From Candidatus Omnitrophota bacterium (lineage in GTDB: Bacteria > Omnitrophota > Gorgyraeia > Zapsychrales > Zapsychraceae), in the NCBI GenBank assembly GCA_050250375.1, contig JBFWOS010000002.1, forward strand, positions 374,345 to 438,344: a stretch of DNA of 64,000 nt, given 5' to 3'. Each line of letters starts with the position of its first letter. Positions within the stretch are counted from its first letter, which is position 1. Below are positions 1,290 through 51,325 of this stretch, one piece after another. Under the pieces are notes generated by a model that made no database searches, was not told the DNA's origin, and saw nothing but the letters and a program-made list of their open reading frames with translations. Made by a program: the position numbers and the translations under genes.

Positions 1290-4200
1290 GAAATTATTAT
1301 TTATTGCATTTATTTGGTATTTGCCATTGCAGTTAAAACTGCCTAATTTCCCGATCTTCCCGATGATCAATATTTTATTTATATTGTTAACGGGAGTCTT
1401 TTTAAGTTCGCGAAACGAAAAATTTGTCCGGCCCAGATTTGAGACACCGTTAATGTTTTTTCTAATTATATGGATGTTTTCTTTTGTATACGCGTGTATG
1501 TTCACGGATGGCATGCCGCGAGTTGAAATTGCCCGTGAATTTAAAAGGCTTTATTTATTGCCCTTGGGATACTTTATACTCTCAAGATGCATCACGGATA
1601 AAAAGGAAATTCCATTTTATTTTGCGGCCTTTCTTTTATGTCTTGTATTTGCTGGGCATAATACTTTACGTAATGGGGTTCTTGCCGGCGCGAATTATGC
1701 AATCCATAAAAGATCTTCCGGGCCTTTCGGGACGGACTGGCAGGCTTCGGATATAGCCGGAGGTTATATTGCTACCTTTACGCCATTGTTGGTTTCCTTT
1801 TTCTTTTTTTCTCGTCAACGTATGAGTAAATTATTAAGCGCAGTTGGTGTCGGTGCTTGTGGTCTTGGTTTGATGGCGACGTATTCCCGTGGTTCCATGA
1901 TGGCGTTACTCTTTGCTTGTATTGCTATTGTTATTGTGGGAACAAATGAACTTGCCAAGGAATCAAAGATTAATTTTTTGGTGATTATTATAGGATTGGT
2001 GGTTGGTTGTGTTTTTTGGAAAGCATGGGTTCCGCAATCGATAATTGCCAGGGTTGAAGGTACTATAGAATTGGATGACGAAGAAAAGGATTATTACGAT
2101 TATTCATTAACCGATGATGAAGGCGATAGTGTGCTGGATCAGAGTTCTCAATTGCGGATGAAAGCGTGGAACGAAGGGCTTCAATTCTTTATGGACAATC
2201 CTCTTACTGGAATCGGATTCCGACAAGTACAGTTTCAATTAGGCCATGACCCACACAACACTTTTGTTCTGATTGCCTCAGAAATGGGTGCGGTTGGATT
2301 TCTGATATTTGTCTGGCTTATATTCAGTGTTATGGGGCATGGGTTTAGATTAATGGGAACGGAATATAATAATCTTGCTGTAGGAACAGTCGGGATGATG
2401 GTTGGATTTATCGTGGTGAATTGTTTTTATTCTAATTTTTTCCGGGATAACGTTGCGGGCAGTTTTTGGGTAATACTGGCTATTATAGCAGCTGCCGATA
2501 ATTTCAGAGATGACCAATCCGATTCAACCAATAATAATTCAGATTTACCTGGAAATAAACGACAGACCTACGCGGAGTATCGTAAAAAATACTTAAAAAG
2601 CGTGTTGTTTATCTTTTTTGTGTTTTGTTTTACATCGTCTGCGATGGCCAGCGAAGTTAAAATTGAGAGATGGTGGTCTGAAAAGAATGTTTCACATTTG
2701 AGTGTACTAGATGATTTAAAGCCAGGATTGACTGGCGAGATATATTATGTTGATGGATTAAATGGAAATGACAACAATTATGGAAATTCATTGAAGTTCC
2801 CTTTTAAGAATATAGGTCGGGGAATTCAAAATTTAAAAGCCGGAGATATATTATTAATTAAAGCGGGTATTTATAAGGAAAAACTTTGGATTCAAACCGC
2901 TGGAACTCCTGAAAAACCTGTGATCATTGGTCCATATGGTGATGGTGAAGTCATTCTTGATGCTTCACTTGAAATAGACTCGTGGCAACCTTATAAAGGA
3001 AATATTTACAAGGTCAGTTGCAGTAAAGAAGTAGGTGCTGTGGTCATTGATGAAAATCCATTATTTCCAAATTATAATTTATATGAGCTGTCAGAAAATC
3101 AATGGTATTACGATATTGCTAACAAACTTTTGTATGTCTACCTTAAGAATGGCGAAAATCCAAATAATCATCCTGTAGGTGTCGTCGAATATTCAAAATA
3201 CAATCATGCGGTTTTTCTTAATGGTGCCCGCCACGTCTTTCTTTACGGGTTGACAGTGCGCTACGCGGGAGGTAAAGGAATTGAGATTTTAGGCCCGTAC
3301 AATCGGATAGAGCAGTGCAATATCAAGTTTAATGCGGCGCACGGCATAGGTATGTTTCGTTATGAAAATCAACATTCTGATTACACATCAGTTGTTAAGA
3401 ATCACGTATATCATAATTTTTTAATCAATTGGCCCAGAGGGCGTTGGCCATATAAAAATGGCGGGTGGGGAATGGGCATCGCCGGTTCTGCCAGTGAAAA
3501 TGGAGTGATCACCGGAAACGTTGTCCATAAGAACGGAGGAGAAGGTATTGGCGTTCCAGTTGTCGGAGGGCAAGTAATTGATAATATTGTGTATGATAAC
3601 TGGAGTGTGAATATTTATTCAGACAGTTCTTCAAAGGCAATTATTGACCGGAATTTAATCTATTGTGAAGATATAGATCCGGCGGACTTAACAAATAATA
3701 AGGATGAAAGACCTTGGGATGGCAGGAGCCTTAAACGTTTGAGAGCCGAGGGAATTATGACGGCGGATGAAGATGAGCCTGCGCTAAGCCATGATCTAAA
3801 AATAACAAATAATATCATCATAGGTTGTAGGAAGGGGGTTTCGCACTACGGCCCTGCTGCTTGGTCCGGATTGAAGGATGTGCTTGTTGCACATAATACG
3901 ATTATTTTGCCAGATGCAGACGGAATTTGGGAAGATTTTGTCGGAATTAATGTCCCATGGAATGAAGGCAATAACGCCGGGACCGTTTATCGGAATAATA
4001 TTGTTTATGCAACTCACAAAGATACATTGTTGGTTAACGTGGCGCATGATCCGTTATACAGAATTGAACCATTCCATGGGATTGCATTTGATCACAACAT
4101 TTGGTATCACACATCTCGAAAGAAACCATTTTATTTTGGGATCCCGCTGATAACCTTTTTTCAGGATTATGATTTTAAAGGCTGGCTGAAACGGGGGGAG

Positions 4201-47054: not shown

Positions 47055-47224
47055 ATATTAAAAAGGACACACAATCCTTAACGCTTTGGTCTTGATTCCG
47101 GGCTTGATTTTTAAACCATTATACACAAAATTGGATGAAAACACCTAAGATAATATAATTGAGGAAGCGAAGAATCCGGGGCCAGGAATCCGAGGCGCGC
47201 ACTGAATGATGAGCCCGCCTCCTC

Positions 47225-47273
47225 CCCCGCCTTAAACCGTAGTTATTTTGTAACATTGGGATTAGGGGGTGGA
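47225..47273. repeat. R1 repeat copy A (CCCCGCCTTAAACCGTAGTTATTTTGTAACATTGGGATTAGGGGGTGGA)
   Basis: 49-nt element. Identical copy at 49592..49640; partial copies at 47941..47967 and 48768..48800. Confidence 0.85.
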
Positions 47274-47298
47274 TTTATTGTACAGACAGCCTTTTCCT

Positions 47299-47829
47299 TT
47301 AACTATTTAATTTTAAAATGTCACATATTTCTTCGGGTAAATTGTCGCTATAATTCACAGAGCGATTAATTGTTTCTCCATCGCCATCAGTGTCAAAGTT
47401 AATTTCCATTAGGAAATACGGATGTTCACTTGTGACAATTTTGTGTAGCTCGATACCATGCAAATCAGTTTTAATTCTATTCAGAATTTGTACTGTAAGG
47501 GATTTATGAATGTAATAAAATCCACATTGGGAATTAGAACCTACACTTTCTAATATAAGACTTAAATGCCTGTATATTTTAAGACGTACCAATCCACATT
47601 CAAAAGGAATCATTTTAAGAAAGAAATTCTTGCTGGGGGCTCCCGATCCTGTCCAAAGAATTTCCACGTTGGGATCTTTCGATATTTTCTGATAGAAGCT
47701 TCTGGTTTTTCCACCTTGACCAAATATTAATATCTCAAAATCTTTGAAATTAATAGATTTAGAGCTTACAAAATTATTGATCGTTTCCCAAAAATTATTT
47801 CTTAGTAATTCGTCAGAAGTAGTTTTCAT
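47299..47829 (-). CDS. hypothetical protein, AT-rich cassette ORF
   Basis: 176 aa; no motif; AT-rich codon usage unlike flanking genes. Confidence 0.45.
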   Translation of the reverse strand: MKTTSDELLRNNFWETINNFVSSKSINFKDFEILIFGQGGKTRSFYQKISKDPNVEILWTGSGAPSKNFFLKMIPFECGLVRLKIYRHLSLILESVGSNSQCGFYYIHKSLTVQILNRIKTDLHGIELHKIVTSEHPYFLMEINFDTDGDGETINRSVNYSDNLPEEICDILKLNS

Positions 47830-47884
47830 TTATATTATTTAAGTGGAGGCCAATGACCTGGGCTTGTTTGTCCTGGAATAAATT

Positions 47885-47940
47885 AATAAATAGGGACGGA
47901 GGCTATTTATTGTCAAAAGCAGGGTCCGTCCCTAGTTATT
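47885..47940. repeat. H hairpin element copy 1 (TAGGGACGG-N26-CCGTCCCTA)
   Basis: Perfect 9-bp inverted repeat with a conserved loop. Second copy at 48801..48865; partial at about 48424..48478. Confidence 0.8.
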
Positions 47941-47967
47941 TATTTTGTAACATTGGGATTAGGGGTG
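47941..47967. repeat. R1 repeat copy B (3' portion, TATTTTGTAACATTGGGATTAGGGGTGG)
   Basis: Matches the 3' 27 nt of R1 with one G deleted; directly abuts the H element. Confidence 0.8.
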
Positions 47968-47987
47968 GCTGACCAATTATTTTTTAT

Positions 47988-48221
47988 CTATCCAAACTTC
48001 ATATTATCAGAAACAGTATCATCTTCTAAATAAAACTCAACGTCCCCCACTCCGCTCTTTCCATCATAATTACTCCGAAAATGAAAATGATTTTTTGTTT
48101 TATTTCCTTTATTTTCTTTTAGCCAATTAAGATTTGAGATTAATTTATCAATGTCTTTTTCTTTAAGTCCAATAAATAAGCCAAACCATCCCGTATTAAA
48201 GTTCTCAATATTTATGTTCAT
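47988..48221 (-). CDS. hypothetical small protein, cassette ORF
   Basis: 77 aa; AT-rich; no motif. Confidence 0.4.
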   Translation of the reverse strand: MNINIENFNTGWFGLFIGLKEKDIDKLISNLNWLKENKGNKTKNHFHFRSNYDGKSGVGDVEFYLEDDTVSDNMKFG

Positions 48222-48423
48222 AAATTCTTCCTTGCTTTATAAGATTGCATTATCTTGTCGGGGGAACATGTTCATTACCCCCATTCCTTTCACTATCATG
48301 CCAATGTGGCCCCAAACCTGGCTGGTTGGGTCCACCTTCTCTGTCCCATCGTCTTCTGGTCCATTCCAATGACGGTGTTTTCCGCCCGTATTATCACTTG
48401 CTTTTGGCTCTTCTGTCTACCCT

Positions 48424-48478
48424 TCTGGAGGGACCCAATCATCGGGATTGGCTGAAAAGCAGGGTCCGTCCCTAGTTA
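48424..48478. repeat. degenerate/partial H element
   Basis: AAAAGCAGGGTCCGTCCCTAGTTA is identical to the right arm of H. The left arm is degenerate (GGGACCC). The element supplies the TAG stop of the 93-aa ORF. Confidence 0.6.
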
Positions 48479-48753
48479 GTCTGATTATTTTCCATTTTCC
48501 TCTTATTATAAACATCTATTAATAGCTTTAAATCTTTTTCATATTCTTCTAAACTAGCCCAACCACTTTCTTTGGAAAAAGTTCTTTCTAACGTCAAATC
48601 CAAATAATTTGCTATTTGTTTCAATTTTTCAAACAACAAAATCTCACGATGTCGGTCTAGTAGTTTAATAATCTTATTAGACTTTCGTAATTCTTTAATT
48701 AAAGATTGAACACTCTGTAGATCTTTTTCCCATCTATCTTCATTAAAATTCAT
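48472..48753 (-). CDS. hypothetical small helical protein, cassette ORF
   Basis: 93 aa, charged, AT-rich; its stop codon lies inside the H-like element. Confidence 0.45.
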   Translation of the reverse strand: MNFNEDRWEKDLQSVQSLIKELRKSNKIIKLLDRHREILLFEKLKQIANYLDLTLERTFSKESGWASLEEYEKDLKLLIDVYNKRKMENNQTN

Positions 48754-48767
48754 ATTAATCTGACCTT

Positions 48768-48800
48768 CCCCGCCTTAAACCGTAGTTATTTTGTAACATT
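48768..48800. repeat. R1 repeat copy C (5' 33 nt), interrupted by the H element
   Basis: CCCCGCCTTAAACCGTAGTTATTTTGTAACATT followed immediately by H at 48801..48865. Confidence 0.8.
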
Positions 48801-48865
48801 TAATAAATAGGGACGGAGGCTATTTATTGGACAAATGTCAAAAGCAGGGTCCGTCCCTAGTTATT
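48801..48865. repeat. H hairpin element copy 2
   Basis: TAGGGACGGAGGCTATTTATTGGACAAATGTCAAAAGCAGGGTCCGTCCCTAG. It contains the TAG stop of the 101-aa ORF. Confidence 0.8.
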
Positions 48866-49162
48866 CACAATAATAAAAATTACCTTTTCCCAATAAAAGA
48901 CAAAGAATCCGAATATGTTTAATACAAGTATAAAAATAAATGCCTCGTATTTTTTACGCCAGAGTAGATAAGTTAAAATGAAATACAAAAATACCCATGC
49001 CCCCTGAAGAATGATTGTTGTCGGTTTGTCTAAGAGCCATGCCGAATTTGCACTCATAAAACTATGTGGATTCGACAATACAGTATGTGGAATATAAAGT
49101 GCAAAATAACACGCCACAATAGAATTTACTATAACAAGTAATGGAAGAACGAATTTAGCCAT
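48857..49162 (-). CDS. small membrane protein (3 TM), cassette ORF
   Basis: 101 aa, hydrophobic; ends in the CCCTAG of the H element. Confidence 0.45.
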   Translation of the reverse strand: MAKFVLPLLVIVNSIVACYFALYIPHTVLSNPHSFMSANSAWLLDKPTTIILQGAWVFLYFILTYLLWRKKYEAFIFILVLNIFGFFVFYWEKVIFIIVNN

Positions 49163-49198
49163 ATTCGTAAAATTAGGGACAGTGGACTAGACGAAAGT

Positions 49199-49537
49199 TT
49201 AAAAAAATGAAATAAGTGATAATAGAATCATGAAAGTTCCAAGAAAATAAAAGAACACTTCATATGCTTTTTTATCTGATAAACCATTAAGCATAAAACT
49301 CGTAAATCGTGAATTTTTGTCGAAATAATCTTCCATTGAGTAGATATAATCATTTGCCCAGAATTTTGAAAATATTAGTATATGTAATCCAATTAATAAA
49401 TAAATTATGGCACTATACAACTCAAGCGCTTCTTTTGATAAAAAATGATTTTTGAAGAAAGTCGTTAGAATGTTTATAAAAAGGTTCAGAATAAGAAGCC
49501 ATTTGGTAATTCTATAAAAGGCGGTATTAAGTTTCAT
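49199..49537 (-). CDS. small membrane protein (3 TM), cassette ORF
   Basis: 112 aa, hydrophobic, AT-rich. Confidence 0.45.
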   Translation of the reverse strand: MKLNTAFYRITKWLLILNLFINILTTFFKNHFLSKEALELYSAIIYLLIGLHILIFSKFWANDYIYSMEDYFDKNSRFTSFMLNGLSDKKAYEVFFYFLGTFMILLSLISFF

Positions 49538-49591
49538 ATAATTTGTGCTAAATCAAGGGTATGTCCCGTTCTCCCAATTTTAACAACCCTT

Positions 49592-49640
49592 CCCCGCCTT
49601 AAACCGTAGTTATTTTGTAACATTGGGATTAGGGGGTGGA
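49592..49640. repeat. R1 repeat copy D
   Basis: Identical to copy A over 49 nt. It supplies the last codons (S-T-P-stop) of the 140-aa ORF. Confidence 0.85.
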
Positions 49641-50051
49641 CTGTCTGACATGTTGTTTCCATTTGCCTTCTTTATCTCTCAATTCAAACTTTTCGACAAT
49701 ATCTTTGTTCTCACCTTCGCCACCTTCAACACCATCGCGCCCAAAGCTTTTAAAAGTGACAGAATAATCATCATTGACATAAAATAAAATTTCTCTATTC
49801 CATCCATCTTTAGTGGAATTAAGTGTACCGTGCAATTCCGGCAATAAATCTAAACTATTTGGTGGTTTATTGTTAGTTTGAGCATATTGTAATACTCTTT
49901 TTGTCAGTACCCTTATAATTGTAACAGTCGTTGCCTCGGGAGGTATTGGGTGTATGAAGAAAATAGCAACTAATACGGAAATCCCCAATAAGATGGCCAA
50001 AGCTTTGTACACCGCTCGCACGCGGATATGTTCTCGAATTGAAGTGTTCAT
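49629..50051 (-). CDS. putative immunity protein for the adjacent RHS toxin tip (N-terminal TM, soluble C-terminal domain)
   Basis: 140 aa; lies immediately downstream of the RHS C-terminal toxin domain, the canonical immunity position. No family recognised. Confidence 0.4.
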   Translation of the reverse strand: MNTSIREHIRVRAVYKALAILLGISVLVAIFFIHPIPPEATTVTIIRVLTKRVLQYAQTNNKPPNSLDLLPELHGTLNSTKDGWNREILFYVNDDYSVTFKSFGRDGVEGGEGENKDIVEKFELRDKEGKWKQHVRQSTP

Positions 50052-50080
50052 GGATCAATCATTGGATAATAATCTACTGT

Positions 50081-50599
50081 TTACTTGGTGGAGCCGCGGG
50101 GATGGCCAAACCCGAAGTCTTGAAGTAAATCGAACATTTCTTCTGCGAAATCACGACAACTCGAAGTTAATGGTCGATACGGAAAAGGTTTGCCAACCAA
50201 CGAATCCAGATAATTTTTTATTTCTGCATCTTCAAGAGGTGTGGTTTCAAGATAGTAGTCTTCTTTAATTTTCCCACCCTTCAGTGGATCTTCATAAATA
50301 TACCCTGTTAATCCGAATGGCCATGTAAATGTTGGTTCTGTGATAATTATACCGAAACTATATGAGCTATATTCACCGTTAGGATCTCCTACATTAATAC
50401 TTTCATGTGGCAATGGCTCTCCTATAGATGGCCCCTCTATCCAAACATCTAAACCAAACGGATCGATGAACTTTATCGGATTACTAACAGCATACTCATA
50501 AAGATTCAAACTATCCGCATACCCTATCGGATCCCTCTGCAAAAACCTGCCGATACTAGGGTCATACTGTCTGGCCCGATATAGCCGACCGGCAATCAA
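50081..50599 (-). CDS. orphan RHS-repeat-associated core C-terminus plus variable C-terminal toxin domain (truncated; no RHS repeat body, no ATG)
   Basis: RLYRARQYDPSIGRFLQRDPIGYADSLNLYEYAVSNPIKFIDPFGL matches the RHS/YD core-domain end (DPxGL). It is followed by about 125 aa of unique C-terminal sequence. The frame is continuous with pirin apart from a single TAA. Confidence 0.7.
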   Translation of the reverse strand: MIAGRLYRARQYDPSIGRFLQRDPIGYADSLNLYEYAVSNPIKFIDPFGLDVWIEGPSIGEPLPHESINVGDPNGEYSSYSFGIIITEPTFTWPFGLTGYIYEDPLKGGKIKEDYYLETTPLEDAEIKNYLDSLVGKPFPYRPLTSSCRDFAEEMFDLLQDFGFGHPRGSTK

Positions 50600-50605
50600 T
50601 CCATA

Positions 50606-51325
50606 TTATTTAAGATCAAAGAGCAAGAATTCAGAGGCTTCGGGGGATTTGAGAGTGATCTCTTGGGCGTGTTCAATCGCCGCGCCGTCCCCTGTCTTCA
50701 GGGATTGCCCGTCCAGGGTCAATTCCCCTGTAATCATCTGCACCCAGAGGCCGCGGTCCGGTGTTGCCGGATAAACCCTGCTCTGCCCCCGGGCCAATTG
50801 CCCGTGATAAACCCGCGCATCCTGGCTGATGAACAAACAGCGGTCCTCTTCGCGGTTCGACGCAAAAAGGGTTAAGCCGCGGTCTTTTTTTAAACCGGAT
50901 AACGGCAGCTGCTGATAACGCGGTTTCAACCCTTTTTCTCCCGGGAAGATCCATATCTGCAGGAAGTGAACGGGATGGGCGGCTGACGGATTAAATTCGC
51001 TATGGGTAATCCCGGTCCCGGCGCAGATCGCCTGGACCTCGCCGGCCGTCAGCACCGACCCGTGGCCGAGGCTGTCTTTGTGCTCAAGTTCCCCTTCGAT
51101 CACATACGAGATGATCTCCATGTCCCGGTGGGGATGCGCGTCAAACCCGTTGCCGGGCTGGACCGTGTCGTCATTGATGACCCGCAGGGTCCTGAAACGC
51201 GTATGCTCCGGGTCCTGATATTCCCCGAACGAAAAGGTGTGGTATGAATCCAGCCAGCCGAAATCCGCGTGCCCGCGTCCGTCCGCGTGCCGGACGGTTA
51301 TCGTTTTATTTTTGAGTTCACTCAT
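50606..51325 (-). CDS. pirin-family protein
   Basis: Bicupin with HPHRDMEI...E metal-binding motif; full length (239 aa). Confidence 0.85.
   Translation of the reverse strand: MSELKNKTITVRHADGRGHADFGWLDSYHTFSFGEYQDPEHTRFRTLRVINDDTVQPGNGFDAHPHRDMEIISYVIEGELEHKDSLGHGSVLTAGEVQAICAGTGITHSEFNPSAAHPVHFLQIWIFPGEKGLKPRYQQLPLSGLKKDRGLTLFASNREEDRCLFISQDARVYHGQLARGQSRVYPATPDRGLWVQMITGELTLDGQSLKTGDGAAIEHAQEITLKSPEASEFLLFDLK

Follow-up and report, generated by a model that had tools for sequence, protein, structure and literature searches.

Modular repeat linkers among small co-oriented genes of an island headed by an orphan Rhs tip in Candidatus Omnitrophota

The window analyzed here is a 64-kb stretch (64,000 nucleotides) of a Candidatus Omnitrophota genome, within which a 3.4-kb island (positions 47221-50605; 35% GC) carries an orphan C-terminal tip of an Rhs protein, a run of small open reading frames (ORFs) and two families of short repeats, R1 and the hairpin H. 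The reading tentatively favored, at slightly less than even confidence, is that the island is a toxin/immunity-type cassette array seeded by the orphan Rhs tip, in which R1 and H link the cassettes, the cassettes have been reshuffled by recombination at these linkers, and H is also terminator-like. All genes and ORFs of the island are on the minus strand, and all repeat copies are located between ORFs within 2.4 kb. A preliminary description of the locus had regarded the repeats as cassette boundaries, and they do separate unrelated co-oriented ORFs; the repeats were correctly placed in that description, while the orphan Rhs toxin tip that heads the array was overlooked.

The linkers, read on the minus strand (the coding strand of the island), resolve into four modules: (i) X, of the form (CAG)(T)CCACCCCCTAATCCC, (ii) a 15-nt core, AATGTTACAAAATAA, (iii) Z and (iv) the hairpin H. 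R1 corresponds to X-core-Z. The two full R1 copies (47225-47273 and 49592-49640) are identical over 49 nt by sequence reading and by repeat finder, as first reported, and the identity widens to 52 of 53 nt when 47221-47273 is compared to 49588-49640. The partial copies reported alongside them are likewise borne out, with 48768-48800 identical to the R1 5' half (33/33 nt) and 47941-47967 corresponding to the R1 3' part minus one G. A fifth and degenerate R1 fragment at 48440-48454 had gone unnoticed; its pattern occurs only there and at the joint that follows the 77-amino acid (aa) ORF. The 15-nt core has exactly four occurrences in the window, one in each of the two full and two partial R1 copies. 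With up to three mismatches allowed, no further copies of R1 or H are detected in the window outside 47.2-49.7 kb, and none are found in a further 9 kb past the window (about 73 kb of genome in all). The chance expectation, from dinucleotide shuffles of the window, is 0.00-0.07 matches per repeat pattern.

The modules meet at five joints (J1 to J5), in the order X-core-Z, H-core-Z, half-H plus degenerate X (X'), X-core-H and X-core-Z. J1 (copy R1-D; 49588-49640, minus strand; core 49610-49624) and J5 (copy R1-A; 47221-47273, minus strand; core 47243-47257) are X-core-Z elements, with J5 forming the left edge of the island beside the promoter region of an 823-aa gene. J2 (48764-48865, minus strand) is a hybrid of H (copy H-C, 48800-48865), then the core (48786-48800) and then Z. 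J4 (47883-47971, minus strand), which follows the 77-aa ORF, is a hybrid of X (47955-47971), the core (47940-47954) and H (copy H-B, 47883-47940), in which X is one C short and a 4-nt duplication (ATAA) is present between the core and H. J2 and J4 are reciprocal hybrids with a common core. The edges of X and Z are fixed at one nucleotide beside unrelated DNA, the 5' edge of X being the same nucleotide in J1 and J5 and within one base in J4. J3 (48440-48480, minus strand), which follows the 93-aa ORF, has the 5' half of H and a degenerate X and lacks both the hairpin and the core. On the minus strand, the half-H (48455-48480) directly abuts the X piece (48440-48454: CAGCCA, a 6-nt deletion and ATCCCGATG), and the joint looks illegitimate rather than precise. 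At the edge of the island (47200-47232), the Z end of R1-A reads AAGGCGGGGGAGG and the native flank immediately next to it reads AGGCGGGC, forming a short direct repeat that could be microhomology where the island joined the chromosome.

The hybrids differ from what had been described earlier, namely an H inserted into R1 in the copy at J2. No remainder of R1 is present on the far side of H; R1 is therefore truncated at the joint, not interrupted by an inserted H. The order of H-core-Z, cassette and X-core-H is that expected from a circle with X-core-Z integrating into H-core-H. Equivalently, excision of the 0.83-kb cassette would regenerate an R1. The hybrid order is suggestive but weak evidence of one crossover within the core, because few alternative arrangements exist.

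Part of this anatomy is seen in an independent assembly. A Logan contig of 1,547 nt (L017) is exactly window positions 48793-47247 and, being 100% identical, bears out J3 and J4 together with the sequence that flanks them. The L017 end at 48793 is where a k=31 graph would be expected to break, in sequence common to two R1 copies. The other end, at 47247, falls in the R1 core and is unexplained by repeats within the present assembly; also unexplained by such repeats is the end of a 30.9-kb Logan contig (L024) at 50540, a point that comes after ...YDPSIGRFL in the Rhs core motif. The ends at 47247 and 50540 hint at more copies of R1-like or Rhs-core sequence, or at variants, in samples SRR27751815 and SRR27751816.

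Two full copies of H are present, as had been noted, with edges at 47883-47940 and 48800-48865; the perfect stem is, however, 10 bp (TAGGGACGGA/TCCGTCCCTA) and not the 9 bp first given, and reaches 16 bp if one mismatch is allowed. The sole difference between the two copies is an 8-nt indel in the loop, the stems being identical. Folding as RNA yields -23.2 kcal/mol (z -5.0) for H-C and -22.1 kcal/mol (z -5.5) for H-B, in agreement with a stable hairpin of -22 to -23 kcal/mol and z of about -5, and folding is strong on both strands. H has certain features of an intrinsic terminator, including the 10-bp GC-rich stem, a fold energy of -22 kcal/mol and a U-rich tail on the coding (minus) strand (UUUAUUAA), yet has a loop of 24-32 nt; its flanks on this strand are AATAAC...TTTATTAA. 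H is termed terminator-like, and its terminator activity is a prediction. The copy described earlier as a degenerate H (at about 48424-48478) is indeed a piece of H, but only the plus-strand 3' half (48455-48480), which is without its partner arm and does not fold as a hairpin. R1 is an imperfect palindrome with a GTTA-CAAAA-TAAC center, but it folds no better than shuffled sequence as DNA or as RNA (z -1.1 to +0.4). R1 was on this basis rejected as a structured element. A known RNA family for R1 or H was also rejected, as no Rfam family matches the 46.5-51 kb region (E<=1).

Three ORFs stop within the repeats, in accord with the preliminary description. The TAG codons of the 93-aa ORF (CTA at 48472-48474) and the 101-aa ORF (CTA at 48857-48859) are in the AACTAGGG flank of half-H and H-C, respectively, and the TAA of the 140-aa ORF (49629-49631) is within R1-D. 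This number is only three of six ORFs. The stop of the 176-aa ORF is 25 nt short of a linker, that of the 77-aa ORF is 16-20 nt short of a linker, and the 112-aa ORF has no repeat behind it. The stops fall in the linkers because the joint of cassette and linker is at or a few nt from the ORF end, and because the linkers have stops in several frames (two in R1, and more in H). The end of Z is purine-rich (GGGGAAGG) and is positioned 10 nt ahead of the ATG of the 93-aa ORF.

The first gene of the island encodes the orphan Rhs tip of 172 aa (tip172; 50081-50599, minus strand), and starts 6 nt past the stop of a pirin gene. Its N-terminal part is the last 44 residues of the Rhs-associated core, IDPFGL included (TIGR03696 positions 33-76 of 76, E=3.9e-16). 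Tip172 is, in this respect, a fragment of the Rhs core that ends in the DPxGL cleavage motif and is followed by a variable toxin domain. A profile of the tip172 family matches the C-terminal ends of solved Rhs/TccC cocoons in the PDB (E=1e-8). The toxin domain of about 120 aa has a weak match to PF05903 (PPPDE-like), and its His65 and Cys148 are invariant in an alignment with three related proteins (P0003-P0005). No full-length Rhs gene is present in the window.

Orphan tips followed by small genes stand alone in other uncultured genomes too, which counts in favor of a cassette array seeded by such a tip. Stand-alone Rhs tips of about 170-180 aa, each followed by one to two small genes, are observed on contigs from uncultured groundwater organisms (L008:6622-7923, L009, L010 and L006:9282-11448). 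On L008 to L010, the tip is located between a transglutaminase-like gene and FabA-like genes, and on L006 it is downstream of a 588-aa Rhs fragment and an insertion sequence (IS). Orphan Rhs tips without a nearby full-length Rhs gene are noted in several uncultured genomes.

In the favored reading, the island would begin with the orphan Rhs toxin tip, and R1 and H would serve as inter-cassette linkers, the linker being X, the 15-nt core and Z (R1), with H able to replace X or Z. Stacking and reshuffling of the cassettes may have taken place through recombinational exchange between linkers. Of these exchanges, at least one would have fallen within the 15-nt core and given H-core-Z (48764-48865) and its reciprocal X-core-H (47883-47971), the two hybrids that would flank a cassette of the 93-aa ORF, a remnant and the 77-aa ORF. 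The predicted circle junction of this middle cassette (X-core-Z, between the end of the 77-aa ORF and the start of the 93-aa ORF) is ...GGTCAGCCACCCCTAATCCCAATGTTACAAAATAACTACGGTTTAAGGCGGGGAAGGTCAGATTAAT..., and the predicted empty site (H-core-H) is ...CCGTCCCTATTTATTAAATGTTACAAAATAAATAACTAGGGACGG.... We infer that recombination at the core gave rise to the joints and that the enzyme was most likely the general or short-homology recombination machinery of the host, which may loop cassettes out and re-integrate them in a Campbell-type event via linkers identical over 37-53 nt; a dedicated integrase is less likely. Displacement and illegitimate events, such as that of J3, may have occurred alongside. 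H would have the extra role of a terminator-like or RNA-stabilizing hairpin at the 3' ends of cassettes. Arrays built by sequential displacement are described, as are immunity arrays with repetitive intergenic motifs (PMC5361080; 10.1101/471110; PMC3482391), and the displacement models for Rhs and type VI secretion system (T6SS) arrays agree with the favored mechanism (PMC5361080).

Several points weigh against this reading. General recombination does not explain how identical linkers were first placed beside unrelated cassettes at fixed nucleotides, and a core of 15 nt is short for RecA-dependent exchange. The data are of one locus in one metagenome-assembled genome (MAG); in a comparison aimed at an empty site, the closest relatives of the 823-aa gene are only 39-43% identical and are not syntenic. 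Rhs core homology is absent ahead of the later modules, as the sole match of the core fragment in a tblastn search of the window is at 50420-50599. A classical Rhs orphan array was rejected on the ground that the later cassettes are without such homology. The closest homolog of the toxin (55% identical, on contig L003) is followed by a gene for an unrelated 132-aa protein with four transmembrane (TM) helices, unlike the 140-aa ORF. Known immunity families (Imm, SUKH and others) are not detected among the small ORFs by Pfam/NCBIfam (E<0.1) or PADLOC. H has a loop of 24-32 nt, and a simple consensus terminator scan calls no copy.

The rival that survives best, although unlikely, is a dedicated site-specific system with its recombinase encoded elsewhere (e.g., a Xer-type or other tyrosine recombinase), in which the R1 core is the crossover site with imperfect inverted arms and the cassettes are mobile in circular form, like those of integrons, rAID-1 or Xer-dependent modules. 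It best explains the fixed edges, which are found beside unrelated DNA in three copies, and it accommodates the reciprocal hybrids, which are in the attL/attR-like order for integration of a circle at the core. The core is centered on GTTA-CAAAA-TAAC with arms that match at 6 of 11 positions, a level we take to be similar to the match between the two arms of Escherichia coli dif. The ORF ends overlap the site, as they do in attC. As in rAID-1 (10.1101/471110; PMC12247911), the cargo is AT-rich and all in one orientation, and polyimmunity loci are frequently located beside XerC/D (PMC3482391). By contrast, no integrase, recombinase or transposase, including any Phage_integrase match, is found among the annotated genes of 40.1-60.6 kb or ten further large ORFs (21.6-35.6 and 61-63 kb, the first 21 kb being outside this survey), the neighbors being pirin and a spermidine-synthase-like membrane protein. 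The fold of R1 at the level of shuffles, the 4-nt duplication of J4 and the irregular J3 with its 6-nt deletion are also at odds with such a system. The preliminary description had proposed site-specific insertion, which goes beyond what the locus supports, with no recombinase near, no integron core motifs and an irregular J3.

Integron sites were also considered. The trait of co-oriented cassettes with repeats, typical of integrons and of clusters of attC sites lacking integron-integrases (CALINs), is present, as all ORFs are on the minus strand and repeats are at five inter-ORF joints. A regular-expression scan of 47100-50700 on both strands for the attC motifs RYYYAAC/GTTRRRY, however, finds only 48035-48041, 48325-48331 and 48557-48563, none of which is at R1 or H. 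The absence of R''/R' motifs from R1 and H, together with the lack of IntI among the genes and ORFs surveyed, led to the rejection of an integron attC array.

A shared pool of cassettes is also not visible in public sequence, which argues against a dedicated recombinase. The R1 21-mer is absent from 185,579 species-representative genomes (one per species) and has a single match in 241 million metagenome records, at L002:826-846 (contig Ga0209640_10058797). A complete Rhs gene contains this match in the part that encodes its C-terminal toxin domain, where it is read in frame as MLQNNYG about 120 nt before the stop, and the similarity to R1 ends at 21-22 nt; it is probably due to chance, though the shared Rhs context is odd and unexplained. 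L002 has two tandem Rhs gene starts (1-235 and 3003-3240; MNRRTA.IDAN...) with near-identical 5' regions, and one complete Rhs copy followed by a putative multi-TM immunity gene. In R1-D, the same frame as MLQNNYG forms a 29-codon mini-ORF with a TGA that overlaps the ATG of the 112-aa ORF (ATGA). The H 24-mer is absent from IMG/VR, and a match of an R1 18-mer to a giant-virus contig in IMG/VR was rejected as being at chance level. Neither R1 nor H is found in the other orphan-Rhs loci that were fetched by protein homology, which include that of the 55%-identical toxin and in which the genes downstream of the tip are unrelated to those of the island.

A more specific version of the recombinase model, which is doubtful, holds that the R1 core is the crossover site of a cassette exchange that operates without an adjacent integrase. 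A recombinase acting in trans (possibly the host Xer) would move circles of immunity or defense genes in and out of the Rhs-seeded array, and J2/J4 would be attL/attR-like.

Rather unlikely is the alternative that R1 and H are small non-autonomous palindromic repeats of this genome or of an AT-rich donor, similar to repetitive extragenic palindromic (REP) sequences and bacterial interspersed mosaic elements (BIMEs), to BOX elements or to miniature inverted-repeat transposable elements (MITEs). The boundary position would then be incidental, and the mosaics would be as in BIMEs. R1 and H are discrete elements of 50-65 nt with defined ends at the 3' ends of genes, H is a near-perfect 16-bp inverted repeat, and the modules form mosaics. 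REP-type elements are known to overlap stop codons, which also favors this alternative. Against it, seven copies are in 2.4 kb and zero are in the other approximately 70 kb examined, copies are lacking in public genome and viral collections, no RAYT or transposase is nearby, and R1 and H are GC-richer than the cassettes that accompany them. H has inverted ends, and the flanks of both copies are without direct duplication. Fragments of an IS or MITE, a possibility that the preliminary description had set against its own reading, were rejected, as target-site duplications are absent and the nearest 25 kb or more on one side and 10-14 kb on the other hold no transposase.

Less probable again is that the repeats are purely regulatory 3'-end modules (terminators or mRNA stabilizers) that spread by local segmental duplication and decay, with no role in gene acquisition. 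The stable H hairpin with its U-rich tail, the location of repeats at ORF 3' ends and the purine-rich end of Z upstream of the 93-aa ORF fit this proposal. The intervening sequences, however, have no similarity to one another and thus give no sign of segmental duplication; the structure of R1 is not significant; no copy is called by the terminator scan; and the half-H and half-R1 copies cannot act as hairpins. Very improbable is an artefact of metagenome assembly, in which alleles of co-existing strains are strung in tandem via shared R1 sequence: while the source is a MAG and independent Logan contigs break within R1 and within the Rhs core motif, the hybrid joints J2 to J4 are unique and need real reads, a second assembly spans J3 and J4, one Logan contig starts where a k=31 graph would be expected to break (its other end being unexplained by the repeats of this assembly), and the repeats would be real regardless.

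The genes of the island were compared to the annotation in the GenBank record of the Candidatus Omnitrophota MAG GCA_050181705.1 (contig JBFXCX010000001.1, 1.0 Mb). The island is bordered by the pirin gene and by the 823-aa gene, which encodes the spermidine-synthase-like membrane protein. The six island ORFs have 25.7-38.3% GC compared to 47-57% for the flanking genes. On one strand, four stop-to-stop frames reach 100 codons or more and a fifth has 82 codons, versus 93 and 83 codons on the other, and the longest frame of shuffled island sequence averages 82 codons; most ORFs are, therefore, credible genes.

Downstream of tip172, at the position expected of an immunity gene, is the 140-aa ORF (49629-50051, minus strand), with an N-terminal TM helix, a pseudopilin-like T2SSG domain and its last three codons and TAA in R1-D. 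The match to PF08334 (T2SSG) is borderline (22.7 bits, cut-off 21) and is without the prepilin cleavage motif, and no homolog other than the protein itself is found among 5.8 billion clusters. Next are two hydrophobic ORFs that are absent from the GenBank annotation, of 112 aa (49199-49537, minus strand; about three TM helices) and 101 aa (48857-49162, minus strand; TAG in the 5' flank of H-C). The middle cassette has the 93-aa ORF (48472-48753, minus strand; start 10 nt after Z, TAG in half-H) and the 77-aa ORF (47988-48221, minus strand). Between these two, a stretch of about 180 nt (48240-48420, minus strand) has an open frame that ends ...KHRHWNGPEDDGTEKVDPTSQVWGHIGMIVKGMGVMNMFPRQDNAIL and a stop, 18 nt ahead of the 77-aa ORF, and has a GC content of 48.6% versus 27-29% in the adjoining ORFs. 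This stretch may be the leftover 3' end of a toxin gene; it has no homolog and no Pfam match.

The last ORF, of 176 aa (47299-47829, minus strand), is a member of an uncharacterized family of about 180 aa, for which an exhaustive search yields 40 distant representatives; close homologs are absent among 5.8 billion clusters. The homologs are in varied accessory contexts, including an extended series of small genes in one orientation in Flammeovirgaceae bacterium 311 and a site that adjoins genes for WYL and AAA_15/AAA_21 ATPase proteins. Apart from the borderline T2SSG match, the small ORFs have no match to an immunity, defense or other family in Pfam, NCBIfam or PADLOC. The varied contexts and the lack of close homologs mean that it is position alone that assigns the small ORFs their putative role as immunity-type cargo.

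The island shares its architecture with several known systems. Sedentary chromosomal integrons and CALINs have near-identical attC sites (e.g., the Vibrio cholerae repeats, VCRs, of Vibrio), which are conserved for 6 nt past the crossover. Similarly, the cassettes of the island are co-oriented, mostly of unknown function and followed by a near-identical, imperfect-palindromic repeat that may overlap the stop, and as in CALINs an adjacent integrase is absent. Unlike attC, R1 and H are without R''/R', the GTT..AAC of R1 is innermost and not at the stem base, R1 is conserved for 33 nt past the putative crossover, and H is a perfect hairpin without extrahelical bases. The BIME/REP elements of E. 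coli and the BOX elements of pneumococci are genome-wide, with tens to hundreds of copies. R1 and H resemble these elements as short palindromic modules that vary in order at the 3' ends of genes, but the copies seen here are all in one 2.4-kb island.

In the rAID-1 arrays of Bacteroidales, short genes of low GC content and one orientation occur with a tyrosine recombinase, and the conserved intergenic motifs are 'reminiscent of integrons' (10.1101/471110; PMC12247911). Comparable features of the island are the co-oriented short genes (77-176 codons here versus about 100-300 in rAID-1; at least two such genes define rAID-1 and six are present here), a GC content well under that of the genome (26-38% here versus the rAID-1 threshold of <41%), repetitive intergenic motifs and a link to contact-dependent toxin systems. 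The likeness of the motifs is in the presence of R1 and H as conserved intergenic sequences. By contrast, the XerD-family tyrosine recombinase that heads rAID-1 arrays is not adjacent in the genes and ORFs examined, no known immunity family is present, the host is of the Omnitrophota, and a toxin tip is at the array head.

Other close systems are the Rhs orphan toxin/immunity modules that arise by C-terminal displacement and the T6SS immunity arrays of Vibrio cholerae that arise by sequential displacement (PMC5361080; PMC3967940; PMC3150448). The island is similar in having an orphan fragment with the core end and a toxin domain ahead of small genes, in the possible toxin 3' leftover before a small ORF and in its foreign AT-rich cargo. 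In classical Rhs orphan modules each module retains core homology as a recombination anchor; here, only the first module does so and the later cassettes are bounded by R1/H. Heterogeneous polyimmunity loci have, like the island, unrelated small genes in tandem and in one orientation with short spacers (PMC3482391). These loci are never interrupted by toxin cassettes and have recognizable Imm families (Zhang et al. 2012, PMC3482391), and extended examples are reported only in Proteobacteria, Bacteroidetes, Firmicutes and Actinobacteria (PMC3482391). While the locus resembles rAID-1 and integron arrays, it belongs to neither: the architecture is shared and the defining features are lacking.

How arrays of orphan immunity and toxin genes are built is only partly understood. 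Two routes are on record, namely homologous or illegitimate displacement, and recombinase-associated arrays with repeat motifs that have no demonstrated function. The island is a compact and readable locus, with identical fixed-edge linkers, a common 15-nt core and reciprocal hybrids. Were the repeats dispersed REP-like elements, the finding would be an ordinary one; were a recombinase acting in trans, the locus would represent a platform for gene capture similar to integrons, with a site of a new type, in the candidate phylum Omnitrophota, members of which are suspected in published work to be predatory. If the joints prove to be products of recombination, the island would provide a simple system in which to ask which enzyme builds such arrays and would extend these arrays to the Omnitrophota.

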